Positions 7,671 to 46,530 of a stretch of 64,000 nucleotides of DNA are shown piece after piece (positions within the stretch are counted from its first letter, which is position 1; each line of letters starts with the position of its first letter). Both the position numbers and the translations under genes were made by a program. This DNA is from an uncultured Acidobacteriota bacterium (GTDB taxonomy: Bacteria; Acidobacteriota; Vicinamibacteria; Vicinamibacterales; CAVVIG01). The DNA lies in assembly GCA_963711795.1 (NCBI GenBank), contig CAVQFD010000004.1, positions 395,873 through 459,872 on the forward strand. Direction: 5' to 3'. The notes beneath the pieces were generated by a model that was given only the letters and a program-made list of their open reading frames with translations, had not been told where the DNA came from and ran no database searches.

Positions 7671-9800
7671 CTACGGAAGCGCCAGTGCCACCAGAGCACC
7701 CGGCTGCTCGCGGCGTGCGCTTCCCGACTGCACGAGGATGTACTGCTTGCCCTCGTGCATGAACGTCATCATCCCGTACTGGCCCGGAATCGGGAGCTCG
7801 ACCGTCTTGAGGATCTTGCCGGTCTTCTTGTCGCGCGCGTGCAGCACCGGCTTGCCGTTCGCGTTCAACTCGGCGTCGCCCCGCAGGTCCTCGGTGGTCT
7901 GCACCAGCAGATCGCCGACGACCATCTGGACCGAATGACCTGTGCCGCCTGTCGCAGAAACATCGACGCCTTTCAAGAGGGGATGGTTGCGAATCCGCTC
8001 GGGCGTCTGTCCGACGGGAACATCCCACAGCTTGTTGCCGGTGTTCATGTCGTACGCCGCCAGGCCCTGGTAGAGCGGCTTGTAAACGGGCAGGCCGTCG
8101 AGCAGCGGCAGGCGGCCGGTCGCTGGTCCGCCTTGCTTGTACGCCGCCACCGTCGTTCCCGTCGTCGGCGTATGCCGTTCGCGTCCGCGCCAGGCTTCGT
8201 CGCTCTTGCCGGCCAGGCCGCGCTCCTCGTCCACGCCGTTCGTGGGCACGAGGAACGACGGCGCAGTGCACGTCCGCTGATGGGACGCGTACATGATGCC
8301 CGTGGTGGGGTCGGCCACGGGCGGATGGTAGATGTTGAGTCCGCCCACGCAGCCGACGTTGTTGAGCACGCCGCTCGTGTTCGGCCAGGGGAGAGGCGGC
8401 ATGTAGAGCCCGCCGACGCGGAACTTGCTCAGTGCCTCGGTCGCCCGGCGCTTCAGATCGGGCGTCCAGTCCATGATGAACTCGTCGGTGATGCCGTTGA
8501 GCACAATCCGATCGAGCGGCTCGGGACGCGTGGGGTAGGGCTGTGTCGGCGCGGTGTAGTTGCCCGGCACCTCGGTTTGCACGACCGGCCGTTCTTCTAT
8601 CGGCCAGATCGGCTCGCCGGTCTCACGATTGAGCGCGAAGATCAGGCCCTGCTTCGTGTTCTGAATCAGCGCGGGAACCCGGCGTCCGTTCACGGTGAGA
8701 TCCATCAGGATCGGCGCCGTCGGGATGTCGTAGTTCCACTGTTCGCTGTGGTGGACCTGGAAGTGCCACTTGCGTTTGCCCGTCTTCACGTCGAGGGCGA
8801 GCACGCTGCCGCCGAAGAGGTTGTGCCCTGGACGGTGGCCGGTGAAGAACTGGTAGGTTGACGCGTTGGTGACGATGAAGACGAGCCCGCGCTGAGGATC
8901 GGCGGCCGCCGGCGCCCACGACGACATGTTGCCCGAGTACTTCCACGCGTCGTTCTCCCACGTCTCGTGCCCGACTTCGCCCGGGCGTGGAATCACGTGG
9001 AACTTCCAGAGCCGCTTGCCGGTCTTCGCGTCGTAGCCCTGGATGTCCGCCGGCACGTTTTCGATTCGCGTCTGGTCGTAGCTCGGCTCGTGGCCGGCGA
9101 GCACCACGACGACGCCGTTGACCACGATGGGCGGCGACGAGCTCGTGATCATGCCGAGCGGCCGCGGAATGCCGTAGTCCGGGTCGTACTTCCCGCCCTT
9201 CCACGCCCGCCAGGGCTCCCAGTCGCTCACGAGATCCGGGATCATGTCTACGGCGCCGCTCTTCGGGAAGTCCTTCAGCGGGACGGGCGCGCCCCAGTTG
9301 TCGAGCGGCCGGCCGGTTCGGGCATCCAGGGCCCAGAGAAAGAACGCCGGCGTCGAGATGAAGATCACGCCGCGGCCATCCACCTCCGCATAGGCGACAC
9401 CCTTGCCGAAATCCGTGCGCGGCGAGCGCAGGTAGCGCATCGTGTCGGGCTCGCGGAAGGTCCAGCGTGTCTCGCCGGTGCTGGCGTCGATCGCCACGAC
9501 CTGCCGCCGCTGCCCGACCACCGTGTACAACATGCCGTTCACGTAGATCGGCGTCGACCGCGACGTGTACTCCATACCAGGGCCGAAGTTGTCGCCTCGA
9601 AAGATCCAGGCGACCTTCAGCTTGTCGAAGTTGGACGCGTTGATTTGGTCGAGCTGCGACGATCGGGTGTGGCCCGCGTCGCCGCCCAGGTAGCGCCACG
9701 ATCCGTCTTCGGTTCCCGTCAACTGCGCCAGCCCCGAGGGCGGGGCAGCCAGCAGGGCCGCGAGCGTCAGAATTCCACAGCGCGATCGCGTTCGTGTCAT
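7671..9800 (-). CDS. PQQ-dependent dehydrogenase (glucose/quinate type), secreted
   Basis: PQQ propeller repeats ([14 protein letters not shown]), QINASNF, SSPPIVV, MTFMHEGKQYI. Confidence 0.88.
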   Translation of the reverse strand: MTRTRSRCGILTLAALLAAPPSGLAQLTGTEDGSWRYLGGDAGHTRSSQLDQINASNFDKLKVAWIFRGDNFGPGMEYTSRSTPIYVNGMLYTVVGQRRQVVAIDASTGETRWTFREPDTMRYLRSPRTDFGKGVAYAEVDGRGVIFISTPAFFLWALDARTGRPLDNWGAPVPLKDFPKSGAVDMIPDLVSDWEPWRAWKGGKYDPDYGIPRPLGMITSSSPPIVVNGVVVVLAGHEPSYDQTRIENVPADIQGYDAKTGKRLWKFHVIPRPGEVGHETWENDAWKYSGNMSSWAPAAADPQRGLVFIVTNASTYQFFTGHRPGHNLFGGSVLALDVKTGKRKWHFQVHHSEQWNYDIPTAPILMDLTVNGRRVPALIQNTKQGLIFALNRETGEPIWPIEERPVVQTEVPGNYTAPTQPYPTRPEPLDRIVLNGITDEFIMDWTPDLKRRATEALSKFRVGGLYMPPLPWPNTSGVLNNVGCVGGLNIYHPPVADPTTGIMYASHQRTCTAPSFLVPTNGVDEERGLAGKSDEAWRGRERHTPTTGTTVAAYKQGGPATGRLPLLDGLPVYKPLYQGLAAYDMNTGNKLWDVPVGQTPERIRNHPLLKGVDVSATGGTGHSVQMVVGDLLVQTTEDLRGDAELNANGKPVLHARDKKTGKILKTVELPIPGQYGMMTFMHEGKQYILVQSGSARREQPGALVALALP

Positions 9801-14426: not shown

Positions 14427-16588
14427 TTAGGGGAGCGCGAGCGCCGTGTAGCCGCCCTGGACCGGGAGCATCACGTACTGCTTGCCCTGGTGCATGTAGG
14501 TCATCAGCCCGTAACCGCCCATTTCCGGCGTCGCCACGGCACCGACGCGCTTGCCGGTCTTCTTGTCGATGCCGAAGAGCATCGGCTTGCTGTCGGCCGA
14601 CGAGCCCGTCGCAAAGAGCAGGGTGGAAGTGGCCATCATGGCCGCATGGCCGCTGCGGCCCCAGTTGGTGTCCACGTTCACGCCCTTGAGCAGCGGGTTG
14701 TTGCGGAAGGCGTCCTGCTGCTCCTGCGACATGTCACCGTGCGGAATCATCCACAGATGTTCGCCCGTGTTCACGTCGATGGCCGTGATCCGGCCGACGG
14801 GTCCCTTGAAGAGGCCCGGGATGCCGGCGAGCGGGCTGCCGGGGCCGAAGCCCGCGCCGCCGCGGCCTCCCGGTCCTGCCCCACGCCCGGCCGGTGCGGC
14901 GCCGCGACCCTCGGCCGCGCCACCACGGCCCGCAGCCCCTGGGGGCACCGCGGAGCCGCGTGCCCACGGCACAACGGTCGTGCCGGTCATCCGGTCGTTG
15001 TCACGTTCGCTCGCCGGGCCAAGCATCACCGCGCCGCACCCGCTGTGCGACGTGATGAAGATGATCCCCGCCGTCGGATCGGCCGCCGGTGGCCCCGTAA
15101 TGTTCACGCCGCCGGTGTCGCCGGGGCAGATGCGCGCCGGGGCCGGCGCCCTCCGCGTTGCCGCGGTGCGTCGGCGGGTTGAAGAGTGGCGCGAGCTGGT
15201 TCGCGGCCTTCGCCGCCTCGAGCGCCAGCCGCTTGATCTCCGGCGTGTAGTCGATCAGGTGCTCTTCGGTGCGCCCCTGCAGGTCGTACGGCGCCGGCCT
15301 GGTCGGGTGCGGCTGCGTGGCCGCCAGCTTCTCGCCCGGCACTTTCGATTGCGGCGCCGGCTTCTCGACGATCGGCCAGATGGGTTCGCCGGTCTGCCGG
15401 TTGAACGAATAGAGGTACGCCTGCTTCGTGGCCTGGAACACTCCCGGGACGCGGCGACCGTTGACGTTCACGTCGAGGAGGATGGGCGCCGTGGGCGTGT
15501 CGTAGTTCCAGATGTCGTGCTTGACCATCTGGAAGTGCCAGACGCGCTTGCCGGTCTTGACGTCCAGCGCAATCAGGCTGGTGCCAAACAGGTTGTCGCC
15601 CGGGCGGAACCCGCCGTAGAAGTCCATCGTCGCGCCGTTGGTCGGGATGTAGACCAGCCCGCGTTCCGGGTCGGCCGCCATCGGCGCCCAGGACGAGATG
15701 TCGCCGGTCCACTGCCACGCGTCGTTCTCCCACGTGTTGTGCCCGAACTCGCCGGGCCGCGGAATCACGTGGAACTTCCACAGGTACTTGCCGGTCTTTG
15801 CGTCATAGCCGAGGATGTCGCCCGGCACGTTCTCACGCCGCGTCTGGTTGTAGCCCTGTTCGGCGGAGTTGCCGACGACGACCACGTCGTTGACGACGAT
15901 CGGCGGCGAGGAACTCGTGATGTAGCCGATCGACAGCGGCATCCCGATGTTCGGGTTGTAAGGCTGCTTCAGCTTGGCCCAGGGCTCCCAGTCGGCGATG
16001 AGATCCTTGACGAGGTCCACCGAGCCGGTCTTCGGGAAGCCCGTGATGGGCACCGAGCCGCCCCAGTTGGCGAGCGGCTGGCCCGTCCGCGCGTCGAGCG
16101 CGTGCAGGAAGAAGGCGGGCGTCGTGATGAACACCACGCCGCGGCCGTTGATGCGCGCGTAGGCCACGCCCTTGCCGTGGTTGGCGCGCATCGAGGTACT
16201 CGAGGCGGCCCGTCGTCGGCTCCTGGAACGTCCAGAGCGTCTTGCCCGAGGCCGGGTCGAGCGACACGACGGTCCGCTTCGGGCCGGACGTCGTGATGAG
16301 CATGCCGTCCACGTAAATCGGCAGCGACCGCGCGTTCACCTCGCCGCCGAGATTCACGCCCGCATCCTTCACGCCGCGCCATTCCCAGGCGACCTTCAGG
16401 TTGTTGAAGTTGGACGCGTTGATCTGGTCTAGCGGTGAATACCGGGCGCCGTTGTTGCCACCGGTGATGTTCGGCCATTCACCCGCTTGCTGCGCGATGC
16501 CGCCAGTGGTGATGACGGCGACGGCCGCCGCAGCAAGAGTGGCTCGGACCGCAAGCGGCCCCGAGCGAAACGAAAATCCGCGCATCAT
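14427..16588 (-). CDS. PQQ-dependent dehydrogenase, paralogue of 7671..9800 (frameshifts near 16193 and 15135)
   Basis: Three consecutive ORF pieces match the intact paralogue in order ([32 protein letters not shown] end). Confidence 0.85.
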
Positions 16589-33895: not shown

Positions 33896-33988
33896 ATTGC
33901 AGGATGGCAGAATTGCAGGATTGCAGGAAGGATCTAACGAGTCCTTGATCCGAGTCTTCGATCTTCCTGCAATCCTGTAATCCTGCAA
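33895..33988. repeat. Inverted pair of octamer arrays (GATTGCAG), probable bidirectional terminator hairpin
   Basis: ttgcaggattgcaggaag ... cttcctgcaatcctgtaatcctgcaa between convergent genes. Confidence 0.7.
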
Positions 33989-35406
33989 CGCGGCGCTATT
34001 TCTCGTGCAATGTCTGTCGCCGCGTCCCAGAAGAACTGCACGAAGCGGTAGAGCTCAGCTTCCAGGATCCGTTCCTGGTCGCTGTGCGAGCCGAAGCCCT
34101 TGGGTCCATCCTCGAGATCGGTCGCGGGGCCCACCCCGTAGCACTGCATGCCCTTCTGGCGGAGGTACGCCATGTCGGTGGCCCCCGTGCTCATTGTCGG
34201 CAGCGTGACCGTGCCGTAATGCCGCTTCACAGCGGCTTCGATCGACGCCAGCGCGGGCGAGTCGAGGCGGGTTTCGGGCGTGCGCGGCCGGGACCGCGCC
34301 GCGTAGCTGACCTCGATGGCCGGGTTGTTGACGAGCCCGCGGACCGTCTCGAGGAACTTGTCGGGGTCCTCGTCAGGCAGCAGGCGCACATCGATCGTCG
34401 CGGTCGCCTCGGACGGAATCACGTTCACGCGGTACCCGGCGGTGAAGATGTTTGGAGAGAGCGACGAGCGGAGCATCGACGCGTGACGCGGTTCGTTCTC
34501 GTAGAACCAGTTGGCGACATCGGCCGTGACCTTCGGGTCGAGGCTGAGCGCGGCGAGATAGCGCTTGGCCTCCTCAGGCGACGAGATGTCGGCAAGGCGC
34601 CTGAAGTACGCGCCCGTGGTTTCGTTGAGCTTCACCGGGGGCTGCCAGAGGCCAACCGTGGTGACCGCGGCCGCCAGGTTGAGGACGGCATTTGTCTTGA
34701 GCGGGACCGATCCGTGCCCGGCGACGCCGGTCGCTTTCAGCTGGATCTGCCTGGGAATCTTTTCGAGCGTCTGCACCGACGCGTACTTCGCCCGGCCATC
34801 GATCCGCGTGACACCGCCGCCTTCCGCGATGCAGTACTCCGCCTCGATCTCGGCGAAGTGCTGATCGACCATGAACTGGATGCCCACGCGCGTCGCGCCT
34901 TCTTCGCCGGCCTCCGCAAGGAAGATGACGTCGCGGTCGAGCGGCACGTTCAGCCGCTTGAGCAGCAGCATCGTCATCAGCGACGCGGTGACGTTGTCCT
35001 TGTCGTCGATTGTGCCGCGCCCGTAGATGTAGCCGCTGTCGCGTGCGGCGCTGAAAGGCGGAAACGTCCACTTGGCCGGATCGACGTTGACCGTGTCGAG
35101 GTGGCCCATCAGCAGAAGCGGCCGCCGCCGGCCGCTGCCTTTGAGGCGGGCGACCACGTTGGTGCGTCCCGTCTCGAGCGTGAAGGTCTGGGTGGGAATG
35201 CCTTCCTTCTTCAAGGCCTGCACGACGTAGTCGGCCGCCAGTTCCTCGCGCCCCGGCGGATCCATCGTCTCGATGCGGACCAGCGACTGGAAGTGGCCGA
35301 GCGTCTCTTGTTCGAGCGCCTTCCAGTCAGGCTGCGCCGGCGCCTGAGCGAGAAGCCCGGCACCCAGGCCCACGCTCACCGCCGCGACGGCGGCGAGCCC
35401 GCGCAC
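33934..35406 (-). CDS. M20/M25/M40 metallopeptidase, secreted (start could be ATG 35478)
   Basis: GHLDTV, GRGTIDDK, GEE, HGS, GATD, HSDQERI. Confidence 0.88.
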   Translation of the reverse strand: MRGLAAVAAVSVGLGAGLLAQAPAQPDWKALEQETLGHFQSLVRIETMDPPGREELAADYVVQALKKEGIPTQTFTLETGRTNVVARLKGSGRRRPLLLMGHLDTVNVDPAKWTFPPFSAARDSGYIYGRGTIDDKDNVTASLMTMLLLKRLNVPLDRDVIFLAEAGEEGATRVGIQFMVDQHFAEIEAEYCIAEGGGVTRIDGRAKYASVQTLEKIPRQIQLKATGVAGHGSVPLKTNAVLNLAAAVTTVGLWQPPVKLNETTGAYFRRLADISSPEEAKRYLAALSLDPKVTADVANWFYENEPRHASMLRSSLSPNIFTAGYRVNVIPSEATATIDVRLLPDEDPDKFLETVRGLVNNPAIEVSYAARSRPRTPETRLDSPALASIEAAVKRHYGTVTLPTMSTGATDMAYLRQKGMQCYGVGPATDLEDGPKGFGSHSDQERILEAELYRFVQFFWDAATDIAREIAPRCRITGLQEDRRLGSRTR

Positions 35407-35468
35407 CTTGAACCCAGAACCCAGAACCGAGCAGCGCACCTTGAACTTTGAACCCGGCACGTTGAACC
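35401..35468. repeat. Heptamer array (GGTTCA family on the minus strand)
   Basis: cttgaac ccagaac ccagaac ... cttgaac tttgaac ... gttgaac. Confidence 0.7.
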
Positions 35469-35495
35469 GCCCCCGCATCCTCCACCGCCCTTCAG

Positions 35496-36608
35496 TTACC
35501 CGAGAATCGTGCCGAGCCAGGTCAGCGCCATCGTCACCCCGGCCAGCTGGATCCAGAGCTCGGAACGCTCGCGAAGGCAGATGAACCCCGCGCCGACGAA
35601 GAACGCCGCGGCGACGAGGAATCGCCAGTACAGCTCCTCGGCTTCCTCGGTCACGCCCAGCGACGGCGCCAGGCGCTTGCCGGTGTCGACGATGGCGTTT
35701 GCGATCTGCCGGTCGCCTTCGCGGTCCAGCTCGAAGTACTGACCGCCTCCGGCGAGCGCGATCTTCTGAAGGGCGCCGCGGTCCAGGCGCGAGAAGAGCG
35801 GGATGTCGGGATCGGGCTCTGAATCTTCGCCCTCCGGGACGACAAACGCCGGCATGCGTCCGCCGCCGAGCGTGCCGACGCCGATCACGAAGACCGGGAT
35901 GCGGCGGTCGATGGCGCGCTTCAGGGCTTCGGCGACCTCGCCGCTCCAGAACTCGCCGTCGGTGATGGCTACGAACAGCTGCGCGTTGGACGAGCGGCCG
36001 TGCAGCTCCTCGTCCTTCTCGACCATGCGGATGCCCCAGTCGATGCCCTTCTCGATGTTCGTGTCCCACGTGGTCTCTTCGGTGAGCCGGAACGGCGGCT
36101 CCTTCTCGAGGTTGTCGAGGAAGAAGAAGAACGTGTTGGGATCGGTGGTGAGACGCACCTGCGGCGCCGCGAGGCGCGCAAAGAGCGTCAGCGAAATCCG
36201 GTCGTTCTTCCAGGCCATCGAATCGGCAAGAAGCCGAAGGAACCTGGTGGAGCGCTGCCAGCGATCCCCGGAGACATCCTTGACGCGCATCGATGCGGAT
36301 CCATCGAGCAGGATGACGAGGTCGATGCCGCCCTGCCGCATGACCGCTGCCGGCCCGTGCGGAGCGGCGAGCGCCACGACGAGGCACGCGATTGCGGCCG
36401 CCAGGCACAGCCAGAACGGCAGGTCTCCCGCCAGGCCGAAGCGCTCGGCAATCGGCATCGTACGGCGCGCGGCGAGCCGGCGGATGTCGGCCCGCCGCTG
36501 AAAGAAGCGCCAGGCCCAGAGGACGACAAGCAGCGCGGGCAACGCGAGGAGCCACAGCCACTCGGGTTGACCGAACGAGATCTGCTCGAAGTCGATGCGG
36601 GGCAGCAT
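35496..36608 (-). CDS. VWA-domain membrane protein (MxaL/BatB-like)
   Basis: N-terminal TM (PEWLWLL), MIDAS DGSASM, TDGE, IGVGT, GGQYF, C-terminal TM. Confidence 0.85.
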   Translation of the reverse strand: MLPRIDFEQISFGQPEWLWLLALPALLVVLWAWRFFQRRADIRRLAARRTMPIAERFGLAGDLPFWLCLAAAIACLVVALAAPHGPAAVMRQGGIDLVILLDGSASMRVKDVSGDRWQRSTRFLRLLADSMAWKNDRISLTLFARLAAPQVRLTTDPNTFFFFLDNLEKEPPFRLTEETTWDTNIEKGIDWGIRMVEKDEELHGRSSNAQLFVAITDGEFWSGEVAEALKRAIDRRIPVFVIGVGTLGGGRMPAFVVPEGEDSEPDPDIPLFSRLDRGALQKIALAGGGQYFELDREGDRQIANAIVDTGKRLAPSLGVTEEAEELYWRFLVAAAFFVGAGFICLRERSELWIQLAGVTMALTWLGTILG

Positions 36609-36610
36609 GG

Positions 36611-37372
36611 CTAGCCGCGGCGCCTTGGCGTCGCGCCCCTCCCCGGGTCGGTCTGCTCGCGCTCGTCGTAGGGCATCGGCGCGATGGTCTTGAAGTCGCT
36701 GCCCGGGATCTCAGGTGGCGGGCCGCCCGGCCGCCCGTGCATCGTCGGGCCCATCGGCAGATCCGCGCTCGGGATCGGCGGGGTCATCGCCTCGGCAGCC
36801 GCGCGCGCCCGCGCGCCCCTCGACATCGGACGGCCGCTGGCGATCGAATCACGGAACCGCGCCGCGTACTCGTAGTTGAACGAGGCATCGGCCATCTCGG
36901 GAGCCGCGCGCAGGACCTCGGCGTAAGTGGAGATGACGCCATCGAGCCGCTCGACGGTCCTGATGCGATCGGCCGCGCTGGCCTGCGCCTGGCGGAACGC
37001 CGCGTTGGCAGCGACCAGCATCAGCCCGGGGTCGCTCGCGGCATCGGCGCCGGCTGCCTCCGCGAGCGCGATGGGATCGGTCAGCGTGCCGTAGTCGCTC
37101 CGCCAGTAGGTGACGGCGGCCTGCTCGCGTCGCTCGACACCTGGTTCGAGGGTGAGCGACGAGAGCGCGCTCACCTCGCTCAAGGGCCAGGGCAGGGCGG
37201 CCGTCGACGCCGGCGCCACGCCGAGGCTGTCGTCGCGATCGGAGCGCAGGGTGACGAGGCGCTCGTAGGCAAGGGCGGCTTGATCGATGGCCCTGGCCTG
37301 ATTCCAGCAGATGATGCCCGCCGCGACGGCGGCCACGGCGACGACAAGACGACCGACCACAGATTTCAGCAT
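36611..37372 (-). CDS. Membrane-anchored helical/TPR-like protein (MxaK-like)
   Basis: N-terminal anchor, DASFNYE motif, Pro-rich tail; position between two VWA genes. Confidence 0.6.
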   Translation of the reverse strand: MLKSVVGRLVVAVAAVAAGIICWNQARAIDQAALAYERLVTLRSDRDDSLGVAPASTAALPWPLSEVSALSSLTLEPGVERREQAAVTYWRSDYGTLTDPIALAEAAGADAASDPGLMLVAANAAFRQAQASAADRIRTVERLDGVISTYAEVLRAAPEMADASFNYEYAARFRDSIASGRPMSRGARARAAAEAMTPPIPSADLPMGPTMHGRPGGPPPEIPGSDFKTIAPMPYDEREQTDPGRGATPRRRG

Positions 37373-37382
37373 CGCTTCACCG

Positions 37383-38485
37383 TCAAGGGAACCGCTGGGC
37401 CGCGGGTGCGGCCAGCTTGAGCAACGCGGCAGCCGTCCACAGGGCGGCCGCGGCCAGCGCGAATACCGCGTAACGCGGCTGCTGGCTGGTGTACTGCTTC
37501 ACCTGGATGACGCCGGCCGACACCCGATCGATGTCGGCGATGGCCGCCAGCAGGCTCTTCTCGTCGCTCGCCGCGTAGAACTTGCCGCCGGTCTTCTGCA
37601 CGGCCGGAATCCACATCGCATCGGGAATGAGCTGGCCTTCCTCGTGCGCGTAGTTGGTTCGCACCAGGTACACGGGAACCTTGGCGTCGATGGCGCCCTG
37701 CAGGATGGTGTCGAGGCTCTTGTTCTGCACCATGGCGTTGGTGTCTTCGCCGTCGGTGAAGATCACCATGATGTTGCCGGCCGCATCGAGGAAGTCGAAC
37801 GCCCGGAAGAGCTCCACGCTTTCATCGATGCCGGCGCGATGATCGTGCCCTGATCGGGGAACAGCGAGAACTCGACCGGGTCGCCGATGAGCGAGATGCT
37901 GAGCAGGATGTTGTCGTAGTCGTTCGTGAACGGCGTCACGACGTACGCCTGGTTGCCGAACTCGACGAGCGCGATGAGGTCGCGGTACCGGCTCGCGCTG
38001 CGCAGCTGCACGAACCGCTCGGCGGCCGCGACCGTCGTGAAGAACGTCGCCTCGGTCAGGTTGCGCTTGTTGAGCGTGGCGGCCGTGAACGGCGTGCGCA
38101 TGCTGATCGATGCGTCGATCATCAGGCCGATCCGCCGGCCCGGGAACGTGGCCTCGCGGCTGACGAGCGCGGTGAAGGGATCGGCGAGCGACAGAAAGAA
38201 GAAGGGAAGGCCGGCCAGGAACAGCAGCAGCGGCGCGTGGACCACGACCGACAGCCGCGCCCGCGGCACGGTTTTCAGCAGGGCCGGCAGCACCACCGTG
38301 TGCCGGCCGGCACGCCGCGAGATCGCGGACCGGGCCATGAGGAGCAGGACGGTCAAGGCGAGGAGTCCGACCATGCCCAGCCGCGCTTCGCTCCTGTGCC
38401 AGAACTGCAGGTCGGAGAACCGCAGATCCGCCCACGTCGAGGCGAGCTCGCCCATGAGGGCGCCGAGCCTCGCGATCACACTCAT
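37383..38485 (-). CDS. VWA-domain membrane protein (MxaC/BatA-like; frameshift near 37830)
   Basis: DASISM MIDAS, DLIALVEFG, TPFTND; second frame has FTDGED, TGGKFY and a C-terminal TM. Confidence 0.8.
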
Positions 38486-39751
38486 GCGGGCTGTTCCGAT
38501 TCCGGCGCACGCGAGAACCAGTTGCGCGCCAGACGCAGCGGCGAGTTGAGCTCGGACCTCGCGGATCGTGCCAGGGCCAGCGCGGACCCGATCGCCTGAT
38601 CCAGTGCCGACCGATCGAGGGAGGCCGACGGGCTGTACAGCACGGCGGAGAACGTGCCCATCGCACCGCGCATCTCCTCGAGCTGTTGCCGCCGCGCGGC
38701 CGGCGTCGAGTCAGGCATCTGGGCGAGCCGCTTCGCGAGGTCGTCCGTCGTGGTCGATGCCGACAGCGTCGTCGCCCGACGGCCCGGCACGCGGCCCAGC
38801 GCGACAAGCCGGCCCTCGCCTGCCTCCGGCGCGACCGCTCCAGCGGCGGCCGTCGCCTGGTGGACGATGTCGCCGAGCGCGCTGGCGGCCGCCACACGCG
38901 AAGCTGCGAGCGCGCGTTCGACCAGCGGCTCCGACCAGCCGGCGGCGCCCGCCTGCCGCTCCACATCTGCGAGCTCGGAAACGGCTGCCGACGCGATCGC
39001 GCCACCGCTCATCAACCTGGCGCCGGCTTTGGTCGTCCGCCTCGAGCCACGAGCGAGAGCGATGAGGGCAAGAAGCGTCATGAGGGCGCCGACCGCCATG
39101 AAGGCCCAGCCCAGGATGCTCAAGAGCCCGGCGCGGAACGACAGTGATTCCAGGCGGCTGAAGTCGAGCGACGCCGAGTCACGAATGTCCGGCGCCTCTT
39201 CGGGCACGGTGGACACCACGCGGACCGCATGCGGCGGCAGCACGTAGGTCAGCTCGCGCCCCTGCTGTGCGGTGTTGCCGGCGAGCCGGCTGTTCACGCG
39301 GTACGAGATGTCGAACGCCGGCAGGACGATGTCCTGGCCGATCGCATCCGGACCGATGATACGAAGCGTGTAGTGGTACTGCAGATACCGCCGCGAGCCG
39401 TTTCGCAGGTCCGCGGGGTGGGTGCCGCCCGTCACCTCGAAGGGCGCCAGCTGCACCACCGATGAAGGAAGCCGCGATTCGTCGGGGACGACCTGCACCG
39501 CCTCGTCGTCGAGGACCGCGCACGTGAGCGTCAACGTGAAGGGCTCGCCGATCCGGACCGAGCCGGCGCTCGTGCGCCACCAGCAGCGGATCGGGATCGG
39601 TCTCGACCATCCCGTCGCTTCTGCGGGCGGCGCCCGGATCGGGCACGGCCACGGCGGCCCCGGGACGCGTCGCCGGCGGGAGGCTCGACCTGGCCGTTTG
39701 CGCCCACAGCGAGGTGGAGGAGAGCAGAAGGAGGATCACGACTCTCAACAT
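38482..39751 (-). CDS. Secreted/membrane-anchored protein (MxaA/BatD-like; frameshift near 39595)
   Basis: Signal peptide, beta-rich domain, central TM, helical C-terminus; overlaps the next start codon. Confidence 0.6.
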
Positions 39752-39770
39752 GGTTGGCTACTCCGAACCG

Positions 39771-40693
39771 TCAATTCTTTGTCTTCCTGAGCCGGCGCTC
39801 GGCCACGAACTCGGAAAGAGCAATATCTGCCTGGCGCTGATCCAGGCTCACGCGGACGACGTCGAGGCCGGCATCCCTCGCCGCCCTGGCCACCTCGGCC
39901 TGCCAGTCGCGGACCCTGGCGGCCAGCCCCGCGGCCGTTGAGCGCGAGATCGTGCGCGTCCGGCCGGTCTCGACGTCCACGGTGTCGATCCATCCCGCCG
40001 AGAGGGAAGGCAGCTCGAAGGCGAACGCGCTGTCGATCAAGCACCAGGAACACGTCGTGCGCCGCGTTCAGCAGCATCAGCTCGCGCATGATGCGGGGCG
40101 CATCGTCGAACAGGAAGTCGGAAACGACGGGCAGCATGCGTCGTGCCCCGGAAGTAGCCGCCAATCGTCGTGCTGAGATCGTGGGTCCGGTTCACCGGCT
40201 GCAGGCCGCGATTGGCCTGATACGCCTCCAGGCAGTGGACCACGTGGCTCTTGCCGGTGCGCGGCCGGATCGTCCCGAGGTGGGAAAACCCTCCGTCGAA
40301 GGTCACGAGGCCGAACGGGTCCTGGAAGAACACCGCCGACATGCCGATCGTGGCGACGGCGCGCGCGACCGCCGCGCCGATCGGCACGCCGTCGACGCCG
40401 CAGCGCGTCGAGGCCGAGATGTCCGCGATGGCCGCGACGGTGGCCGTGCTCGGCTGTTCGAACTCGCGGACGACCAGCGGCGAGAAGTTGGTGAGCGAGG
40501 ACTGCGCCCAGTCGATGGACGACAACTTGTCGCCCGCCTGCCAGTCGCGCAGTCCGATGAAGTCGAAGCCTGAACCATGCGAGCGGCTGCGGTGGTCGCC
40601 GAGCGTGACGTCGCTCAGCCGCTTCAGGATGATGAGCTCGATCTCGGTGATGTCAGCCAGGCTGACCCAGGCCGCCTCGGTCCCCGCGCTCAC
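39771..40693 (-). CDS. DUF58 family protein (MxaS-like; frameshifts near 40140 and 40037)
   Basis: GDHRS..HGSGFDF..LRDWQAGD..IDW, VREFE, DISAS, VSDFL. Confidence 0.82.
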
Positions 40694-41732
40694 GGCATCG
40701 GCACCCGCCGACCACGTCCTTGATGACGGCTTCCGTGGTGAGCCCGTGGCTTGCGGCGTGCGGGCCGAGCCAGATGCGGTGGCTCGAGCATGTACGGCGC
40801 GAGATCCTGGATGTCCTCGGGGTAGACCTCGGTGCGCCTGCGCTGGAGGAGCGCCCACACCTTGGCGAGGCGGCCCCAGCAGATGATGGCGCGTGGCGAC
40901 GCGCCGAGATCGACGCCGCGCTCGACGAGCTCGGAGGGCGAGCGCGTGAGCCAGTCGGTGTCGGCGTTGTAGGGCCGGGTTGCCGCGACCAGGCGCTGGA
41001 TGTACTTGCCAAGGCGTTCGTGCAGGAACACCTGCTCGTTGATCGCCGCGCGCAGCTGGATGATTCGCTCCTTCGACATCAGCGGGTTCAGGCGGACGCG
41101 CTTGAAGTCGAAGTTGACGAGCTTCTCTTCCTCGGCCGGAGGCAGGTAGCCGATGTTGATCATGATCGCGAAGCGATCGGTCGCCGCTTCCGAGAGCGGG
41201 AACGTGCCCTGCCCGAGCTCCACCGGGTTCATCGTGGCGATCGCGAAGCTGAAGGCCGGCAGCTCGTAGGTCGTCTTGCCGACCGTGACCGTGCGGTCCT
41301 GCAGCGCCTTCGAGGAACGCGCTCTGCGACTTCAGCGGGATGCGGTTGATCTCGTCGAGCAGGATCACTTCGGCAGACGCCAGCGGGCCGAACTCGGTGA
41401 CGAGCGCGCCGGTGGCCGGGTTGATCATCTGAAAGCCGACGACTTCGGTCGGCTGCAGGTCGGCGCGACCCTGCAGGCGCGCGAACTTGGCGTCGCTGAT
41501 GGCCGCGAGGATGACGCCGAAGAACGTCTTGCCGACGCCGGGCACGCCTCGCAAGCAGCAGGTTGCCGGCGTTGACCTGCCGCTGCTCGCTCTTGTCGTA
41601 GGTCGTCGGGATTTCCGAGAGCAGCACGACGTTGGCCAGCGCCTTCGCGGTGTCGTAGCCGACGAGGGCCTTGCTGCCTTCGGCGATGATGGCGTGGTGG
41701 AATTCGATGGCTTCGGCGAGGTCTCGATGCAC
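40690..41732 (-). CDS. moxR: MoxR AAA+ ATPase (several frameshifts)
   Basis: GVPGVGKT, LLDEINR, ATMNPVE..GTFPL.EA..DRF, GASPRA distributed over successive frames. Confidence 0.85.
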
Positions 41733-44932: not shown

Positions 44933-45016
44933 GCGGTGCATCGTACTACGCCTCCCAAACACCTTTCTGCGCACCGGTGAATGGGCTAGACTGGCGGCCA
45001 ATACTCGAGCTCTTGC

Positions 45017-45083
45017 GGTTCAAGGTTCAGGGTTCAAAGTTCAAGGTGCTGTTCGGGGTGCTGGGTTCTTGGTTCGGGGTTCG
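45017..45083. repeat. Heptamer array (GGTTCA family)
   Basis: ggttcaa ggttcag ggttcaa agttcaa ... ggttctt ggttcgg ggttcgc. Confidence 0.75.
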
Positions 45084-45702: not shown

Positions 45703-45783
45703 ATTGTGAATTGTGAATCCCGTGAGCCCTGAGCCCTAAGCCATGAGTCTGCCTGAAGCCCGGAGTCCGGAGCCTGGAGCCTG
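45688..45783. repeat. Compound heptamer arrays (AATTGTG and GAGCCCT types)
   Basis: aattgtg x3; gagccct gagccct aagccat gagtctg; aagcccg gagtccg gagcctg gagcctg. Confidence 0.75.
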
Positions 45784-45789
45784 AAGAAC

Positions 45790-46530
45790 ATGTCCGACGA
45801 ACAACCGCGCATCATCACGCGGCGTGATCTCCTCCGAGGGGTCGGTGTGGCGGCCGTGGCGGCGGCCGCGCCGGCCGCGGCGATCGATGGGACCGTGGTG
45901 CCTGGTACGGCCGCAGGCGAGGCGTTGCAGCAGAGCGCCACGAATGCCGCCAGGGCACGCGAGGCGTACGAGACGCTGACGGCCACCGAGGCCGACACGC
46001 TCGAGGCGATTGTCGCCCGCCTGATTCCGACCGACGCGAACGGTCCGGGCGCCACCGAGGCGCGGGCCGTTCACTACATCGATCGCGCGCTCGGCGGCGC
46101 GCTGTCCTCCTCACGCCAGGCGTACTCGGCCGGGTTCGCGGCTTTCGATCGCTATTGCCGGATGACGCGAGGGGCGCCGTTTGTCGAGCTGTCGGCGACC
46201 GACCAGGATTCCGTGCTCATCGACGTCGAAAGCGGATCGGCCACCGGCTCGGGTGCCGGGTTCGTGGGCAGCTCCGCGCAGTTCTTCGGCATGGTCCTGA
46301 ACCACACGAGGCAGGGCACCTTCGGCGATCCCTATTACGGCGGCAACGCCAACTACGTTGGCTGGGATCTCCTGGGTACCCGGGCGTACCGGACCAACGT
46401 GACCGCGGCCGATCAGCAGGCGATGGAGAAGGGCGCGCTCAAGCCCAACCACCGATCGGCGTACGAAAACGACATGTTCAACAAGGCCACCGCGCGAAAC
46501 GGTCACGGGGAGCACCAGCATGGCGACTAG
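45790..46530 (+). CDS. Gluconate 2-dehydrogenase subunit 3 family protein (Tat-exported)
   Basis: TRRDLL Tat motif; RLIP, PGATEA, YIDRAL, GTFGDPYYGGN. Confidence 0.88.
   Translation: MSDEQPRIITRRDLLRGVGVAAVAAAAPAAAIDGTVVPGTAAGEALQQSATNAARAREAYETLTATEADTLEAIVARLIPTDANGPGATEARAVHYIDRALGGALSSSRQAYSAGFAAFDRYCRMTRGAPFVELSATDQDSVLIDVESGSATGSGAGFVGSSAQFFGMVLNHTRQGTFGDPYYGGNANYVGWDLLGTRAYRTNVTAADQQAMEKGALKPNHRSAYENDMFNKATARNGHGEHQHGD

Follow-up and report, generated by a model that had tools for sequence, protein, structure and literature searches.

The window analysed here, a 64,000-nucleotide (nt) stretch of the genome of an uncultured acidobacterium of the order Vicinamibacterales (genome G000, 81.6% complete), carries a six-gene operon, all on the minus strand and spanning positions 41732 to 35496, whose genes stand in the R-S-A-C-K-L order of the mxa genes of methylotrophs. 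A first-pass annotation had read this locus as closely spaced or overlapping genes for a MoxR ATPase, a DUF58 protein, a secreted or transmembrane protein, a VWA protein, a helical protein and a second VWA protein, and all six were recovered where it had placed them; the junctions are, in order, a 4-nt overlap, a 19-nt gap, a 4-nt overlap, a 10-nt gap and a 2-nt gap. We call the family of this operon V and the further acidobacterial types W and X, and number loci, genomes and families with L, G and f, respectively. The features are:

40690..41732, minus strand: MoxR AAA+ ATPase (R slot), with Pfam AAA_3 and AAA_lid_2; 346 amino acids (aa) in intact relatives; four single-base indels.
39771..40693, minus strand: S-slot DUF58 protein (PF01882), carrying a DxSxS motif and predicted to act as a cytoplasmic adaptor; two indels.
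38482..39751, minus strand: A-slot protein with a signal peptide, an immunoglobulin (Ig)-like beta-sandwich, a single membrane helix and, at the C terminus, a helical domain; one indel.
37383..38485, minus strand: VWA1 (C slot, BatA/MxaC-like; VWA_2), with two N-terminal membrane helices and a complete metal-ion-dependent adhesion site (MIDAS); one indel.
36611..37372, minus strand: K-slot protein, 253 aa, with an N-terminal membrane helix, a TPR-like helical bundle and a Pro/Gly-rich tail ending R-x-G; intact.
35496..36608, minus strand: VWA2 (L slot, BatB/MxaL-like; VWA E 7.5e-14), 370 aa, anchored in the membrane at each end and with a complete MIDAS; intact.
33934..35478, minus strand: M20 peptidase (Peptidase_M20), a co-oriented neighbour judged to lie outside the system.

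As judged from its sequences, the V operon is a separate family that branches deeply within a chaperone architecture already known, and it probably, though not certainly, shares both the gene order of Mxa and the Mxa side of the tree. Its third (A-slot) and fifth (K-slot) genes have no Pfam or NCBIfam match; a scan with NCBIfam gave no match to any Mxa model and placed the Leptospira BatA and BatB models far below cut-off. A promoter and terminator scan returned results at chance level.

Relative to all three comparators (L014, L015 and L040), eight single-base indels break four of the genes: near 41552, 41304, 40784 and 40708 in MoxR, near 40137 and 40040 in DUF58, near 39595 in the A-slot gene and near 37829 in VWA1. 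These are most likely assembly errors, because unrelated neighbours (ilvB and genes for an acyl-CoA ligase, an aldehyde dehydrogenase and a GMC oxidoreductase) and many pyrroloquinoline quinone (PQQ) dehydrogenase genes are split in the same way and the relatives are intact. Frameshifts across four genes, together with a second, split V copy in the genome, might instead mark a decaying pseudo-operon, but we regard this as very unlikely: besides the equally broken unrelated genes, the matched segments contain no in-frame stops, identity to relatives is normal (84–95% for the MoxR segments against V relatives), the same-genus assembly has its own, different indels, and the window's DUF58 gene is the sole V-family DUF58 gene in the assembly. 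The second copy consists of A-C-K-L alone (C2:650976-654967, L037), is 34–51% identical to the orthologues of genome G008, and has a counterpart in the same-genus genome (L031); a lone MoxR (83.5%; C2:714382-715419, L181), for which a DUF58 partner was not found, lies 60 kb from it, and PQQ dehydrogenases sit between the two. A frameshifted MoxR-DUF58-VWA cluster with several large genes at C2:~599200-610900 (L182) is unrelated to the V family.

All six genes occur in R-S-A-C-K-L order at 35 of the 47 V-family loci, most of the other 12 being interrupted by contig or fetch ends, and a BatD profile found no match at any of the 47, which bears out the first-pass call of mxa rather than Bat gene order. 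At L195 (G142:C1, ~5.92-5.94 Mb) several genes are inserted between S and A, including an opposite-strand PQQ dehydrogenase and an IS110 transposase. MoxR is 75–93% identical among 22 V members (51% for the basal member, in genome G328), and this level of identity in the sampled family points to strong selection. Range was estimated from samples, whose counts are not proof of absence: the V MoxR is present in 90 of 251 Vicinamibacterales genomes, concentrated in four families, and in 15 of 301 genomes sampled across the phylum Acidobacteriota, all 15 within Vicinamibacterales, the order to which close homologues of the operon proteins were also assigned. A search of 401 genomes of Pseudomonadota (the phylum of a Dokdonella genome) with the V VWA2 profile, run without a positive control, found none.

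The affinities of the V proteins were assessed against families of 62–67 sequences for each of MxaR, S, A, C, K and L, drawn from at least 80 mxaF loci of named genomes, and against a comparison set that also held six Bat operons, four (later five) DUF4381-type operons and the W and X types. In an unrooted four-protein tree (20/33 rows, W omitted, 1169 columns), V and Mxa each formed a clade at 100/100, Bat and the DUF4381 type grouped without V at 100/99, and V stood beside Mxa at 87/87. When W was included, V, W and Mxa joined at a Shimodaira–Hasegawa (SH) support of 97, a value that comes with a long-branch warning; in a MoxR-only tree V and Mxa were again separate, with the key node, at SH 84, unresolved. 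Nesting of V within the Bat B set (Bacteroidota/Leptospira-type) was rejected by the approximately unbiased (AU) test (p=0.0004). The K slot matched MxaK at 94.7% in hhalign (E 5.7e-08, 157 columns) versus 29% for BatC, and PF07584, the BatA N-terminal domain, had no match at E<=0.001 in the VWA proteins of L017 and was present in the Bat control (L048). On the four-protein tree, the position of V as sister to Mxa is thus no more than moderately supported.

Two simpler identities were ruled out. V is not MxaRSACKL proper, in that the two clades are separate, the V MoxR is 27–30% identical to MxaR (true MxaR copies are 53–64% alike) and MxaA is not matched; nor is it classic Bat, given the lack of BatD, the TPR gene between the VWA genes and the position outside Bat at 100/99. 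Plasmid searches for true mxa clusters yielded only Bat and other MoxR operons.

Several results weigh against an Mxa affinity. Four slots score closer to Bat than to Mxa profiles: MoxR (Bat E 3.5e-49, 36%, versus MxaR 9.5e-23), DUF58 (4e-22 versus 1e-20), VWA1 (BatA 6e-24 versus MxaC 2e-15) and VWA2 (BatB 1e-31 versus MxaL 2e-06). The A slot aligns in hhalign with the Bat hypothetical protein at 76% versus 3.5% for MxaA, to which it is connected only via the X-type A protein (94% and 90%) and the Bat hypothetical (76% and 81%), and the AU test does not reject a tree with V as the sister of all Bat (p=0.22), the branches being long. The Mxa profiles are, however, themselves nearer Bat than V in every slot, in alignments of differing depth, so that the ranking of scores reflects slow Bat evolution as much as kinship. 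The first-pass view of the products as Mxa-type is upheld by the trees, which place them outside classic Bat, and by the K slot, but not by the four Bat-leaning slots or by the A slot.

Crude hydropathy predicts a membrane topology for V that agrees slot by slot with both Mxa and Bat: no membrane helix in MoxR, no strong one in DUF58, and two N-terminal helices in each VWA protein. The D, S and S of the DUF58 DxSxS motif are conserved in 100, 95 and 100% of 20 relatives, respectively, and the MIDAS residues are invariant in both VWA1 (D, S, S, T, D; 23 relatives) and VWA2 (D102, S104, S106, T183, D217; 35 sequences). In a BatA-type protein of the same layout, the VWA domain has been mapped to the periplasm (excerpt of PMC5700661). 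The AlphaFold model of an A-slot orthologue (L014; predicted local distance difference test (pLDDT) score 83.5) combines an Ig-like sandwich with a single long membrane helix and, at the C terminus, a domain of helices. Foldseek returned one match for it at E<=0.001, a DUF4466 protein at a root-mean-square deviation of 11.5, as well as weak Ig-type matches (E ~1e-3) to nanobodies and, repeatedly and over 175-195 columns, to TRAP (translocon-associated protein) complex subunits; the TRAP resemblance may be a generic likeness of Ig domain plus membrane helix. BatD makes up 11% of the members of the A-slot neighbour cluster in the ESM Atlas. The K-slot model is all-helical (pLDDT 78), and its top Foldseek matches are mostly TPR proteins, none at E<=0.001.

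The first-pass annotation had noted the absence of an adjacent methanol dehydrogenase and called for a genome-wide search. No methanol dehydrogenase was found next to the operon or elsewhere in G000 at its 81.6% completeness, where the best match to MxaF is 33–35% identical and MxaI, MxaJ and MxaD have no match at E<=1e-3; XoxF was not used as a query. The genome holds ~34 PQQ dehydrogenase genes, five of them above the TIGR03075 cut-off, and no match to pqqC was found in it or in G008, while G033 and G142 have pqqC. Seven of its eight alcohol-type PQQ enzymes carry D-x-D where MxaF has D-x-A, a motif that we take to be a lanthanide signature. The two PQQ dehydrogenases of the window (7674-9722 and 14430-16460), which the first-pass annotation had named as candidate clients, are real and belong to a glucose/quinate-type group (best model TIGR03074, below cut-off). 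They lie 19 kb and ~26 kb from the operon, no closer than chance among the ~34 such genes (one falls within 20 kb by chance about 20% of the time in G000), and the proposal does not hold.

The flanking genes of the V operon vary between genomes, as expected if its clients are several and unlinked. Acyl-CoA ligases lie upstream of the operon in the window and at L013-L015, L040 and L041, and CoA-transferase gene pairs flank the module at L019, L021, L023, L024 and L042, in several genera; both probably reflect shared synteny rather than function. Short, repeat-like intergenic stretches rich in GTTC/GGTTC occur at window positions 35400-35470, ~44985-45030 and 45720-45790; one such stretch falls within the M20 reading frame at its longest, and the gene may in fact start further downstream.

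Two related module types accompany V in the acidobacteria. W-type R-S-A-C-K-L modules (L042 in G040, L043 in G033, L211-L276) occur only in families f10 (25/26) and f17. A TonB-dependent receptor precedes W in 30 of the 44 loci that have sufficient upstream DNA; PqqU is its best model (E 2e-73), at a score far below cut-off. In G040, pqqB/C/E-like genes lie ~1.9 kb from the module; W is a stronger lead than V for PQQ or metal uptake. X-type modules (L044-L047, L184) have the permuted order K-L-R-S-A-C and occur in genomes with and without PQQ dehydrogenases. The K proteins of V, W and most X modules end in R-x-G.

By analogy with characterised relatives, we propose, on what we consider an even call, that the V operon encodes an ATP-driven chaperone that spans the membrane, brings exported, metal-dependent proteins to maturity and is not tied to one enzyme. 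A cytoplasmic MoxR hexamer would engage the DUF58 adaptor, and the adaptor in turn would bind A, a single-pass protein, at its helical domain on the cytoplasmic side. In the periplasm, the outer Ig domain of A would build a platform together with the TPR-like K protein and both membrane-anchored VWA proteins, whose MIDAS sites would hold the client or pass on a divalent metal; pulling or twisting powered by ATP would then open the client and let its metal site close correctly. The model has its precedents in MxaRSACKL, which acts on MxaF and Ca2+, and in NorQD, which acts on nitric oxide reductase and iron. According to the excerpt of PMC12276312, when any one of mxaR, S, A, C, K or L is lost the enzyme is inactive and poor in Ca2+, and Ca2+ restores it in vitro; XoxF-type enzymes do not depend on the six helpers for their maturation; NorQD is described as inserting iron via twisting of a VWA linker (excerpt of PMC13036017). 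The first-pass idea that the module matures other periplasmic enzymes thus survives as the best inference, shorn of the clients that had been named for it. Some PQQ dehydrogenases are the likeliest single client class, and they cannot be the sole reason for retention of the operon.

A rival reading, the main idea of the first-pass annotation, makes V a dedicated insertase, of Ca2+ or a lanthanide, for the expanded PQQ dehydrogenases of Vicinamibacterales. Among carriers of V, 89 of 90 genomes have a TIGR03075 match versus 113 of 161 non-carriers, and just one of 49 PQQ-free genomes carries V (two tallies matched by hand, apparently from the same sample, with five candidates scored per genome); in the window's family, the median number of first-look PQQ candidates is 55 in 20 carriers versus 11 in seven non-carriers, a noisy proxy among kin that are not independent. 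The association that the first-pass annotation had anticipated is thus present but not strict. All six genes are retained in G328, a 100% complete genome for which the scoring of all candidates gave no PF01011 or TIGR03075 match, and we count this genome in favour of a non-dedicated chaperone. Conversely, the PQQ-positive families f18 (0/24), f8 (0/16), f12 (0/9) and f5 (0/26) lack the V MoxR and f19 nearly so (1/26), the carrier/PQQ split follows families, and ~12 of the 90 carriers have no alcohol-type PQQ enzyme over cut-off. The 'empty quinoprotein' model TIGR04528 does not track V either (13/26 versus 24/26 carriers in f2; 19/24 and 17/26 versus 0 and 1 carriers in f18 and f19). A PQQ dehydrogenase is among the nearest called genes, up to three per side, at 6 of 47 V loci, in varying position and strand, but this is near the chance rate of 5–11% in G000 (binomial p 0.11 at 7%, 0.33 at 10%). 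The receptor and pqq-like genes beside the sister W module, and the fact that the sole characterised module of the same order serves a PQQ enzyme (excerpt of PMC12276312), speak for the dedicated role; X-type relatives in G026 and G037, both without a PQQ dehydrogenase match, speak against it, as does the prevalence of D-x-D among the alcohol-type enzymes of G000, given the independence of XoxF-type enzymes from the six helpers. On balance we find a dedicated PQQ insertase possible but doubtful.

A different reading casts V as the lineage's stand-in for Bat, an envelope quality-control, export or stress complex whose MIDAS sites bind protein and insert no metal. All six slots have Bat homologues, with the best scores of four of them falling to Bat, a classic Bat operon was not found in G000, the A protein resembles BatD-type Ig proteins and, weakly, TRAP subunits, and it has been argued that the vWA partners of MoxR proteins serve as co-chaperones that bind substrate, not as donors of metal (excerpt of PMC3495828). 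The absent BatD, the TPR gene between the VWA genes, the exclusion from Bat at 100/99 and from the Bat B set by the AU test, and the separate presence of a classic Bat operon elsewhere in the order (L048) all count against such a role, which we think unlikely. As for the M20 metallopeptidase, which the first-pass annotation had proposed as a client, its first ATG lies 17 nt downstream of the co-oriented operon and its N terminus is signal-like, but among 29 loci it adjoins the operon solely in the same-genus genome, a 29% homologue on the other strand lies ~5 kb away at one further locus, and none was found among the flanks scanned at 18 further V loci; that the operon matures this enzyme is most improbable.

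The chaperone reading that we favour has its own counterweights. Two V loci lack C, at least three join R to A without S, two consist of A-C-K-L alone (including the second G000 copy), and 161 of the 251 genomes of the order lack the V MoxR. The function is carried over by analogy from relatives that are 20–30% identical, and bat deletion in Leptospira biflexa gave no phenotype (excerpt of PMC3557215). A bolder view, which we offer tentatively and think improbable, is that V and its sister W are deep, generalist relatives of the methylotroph Ca2+-insertion machine, together forming a trans-membrane AAA+ metal-loading apparatus for the PQQ dehydrogenases, of which each genome has dozens and the majority bear the lanthanide-type motif, and that MxaRSACKL is a specialised offshoot; if V and W do load PQQ dehydrogenases, they would constitute the first insertase dedicated to non-methanol quinoproteins, which may depend on lanthanides.

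The literature that we covered, incompletely and with supplements outside it, describes no mxa-order module in Acidobacteriota. The orphan state of such a module is not new, because stand-alone mxaRSACKL clusters are published for Methylophilaceae, in two to four copies and including strains without mxaFJGI (excerpt of PMC4109929); a deep acidobacterial family without a detected methanol dehydrogenase appears to be undescribed. The Mxa gene order thus exists in abundant soil and marine acidobacteria, in the examined genome of which no methanol dehydrogenase was detected, and an mxa-order cluster should not be annotated as a marker of methylotrophy. For the study of how MxaRSACKL conveys the energy of ATP out of the cytoplasm to a metal site in the periplasm, V, W and X offer several deep branches for alignments, structure prediction and swaps into the published nine-gene Escherichia coli reconstitution (excerpt of PMC12276312).

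Among known systems, V resembles MxaRSACKL in its six slots in the same order, the lack of BatD, the predicted topology, the MIDAS-type motifs and the MxaK-like K protein (94.7% over 157 columns), and it probably falls on the same side of the tree relative to classic Bat; it differs in a MoxR 27–30% identical to MxaR and outside the Mxa clade (100/100), in an A protein that matches MxaA at 3.5%, and in the absence of mxaFJGI and mxaD from G000. Like the Methylophilaceae clusters of the PMC4109929 excerpt, it comprises six genes away from mxaF, at variable chromosomal places and often in more than one copy. Those clusters, however, belong to methylotrophs and are true Mxa paralogues where checked: the two extra clusters of Methylobacillus flagellatus L1B score 537–557 bits against the MxaR profile, with no mxaF, J, G, I or D within 16 kb. 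V is by contrast a separate deep acidobacterial branch with no mxaF detected in G000. With the MoxR-VWA pairs that insert metals, such as NorQ/NorD, V shares a MoxR-class ATPase working alongside VWA/MIDAS proteins, but compared with that two-component cytoplasmic system, by description rather than by sequence, it adds four membrane-anchored subunits with predicted periplasmic domains. In the Bat operons of Bacteroidota, Leptospira and Fusobacteria the order is MoxR-DUF58-hypothetical-BatA-BatB-BatC-BatD[-BatE], the DUF4381 type being that of Proteobacteria; V has homologues in all six slots, among them MoxR, DUF58 and two membrane-anchored MIDAS VWA proteins, but its TPR gene precedes the second VWA gene where that of Bat follows it, it has no BatD, and it lies outside the Bat group at 100/99. 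Through the V family, Mxa and Bat are seen to be, slot by slot, one architecture.

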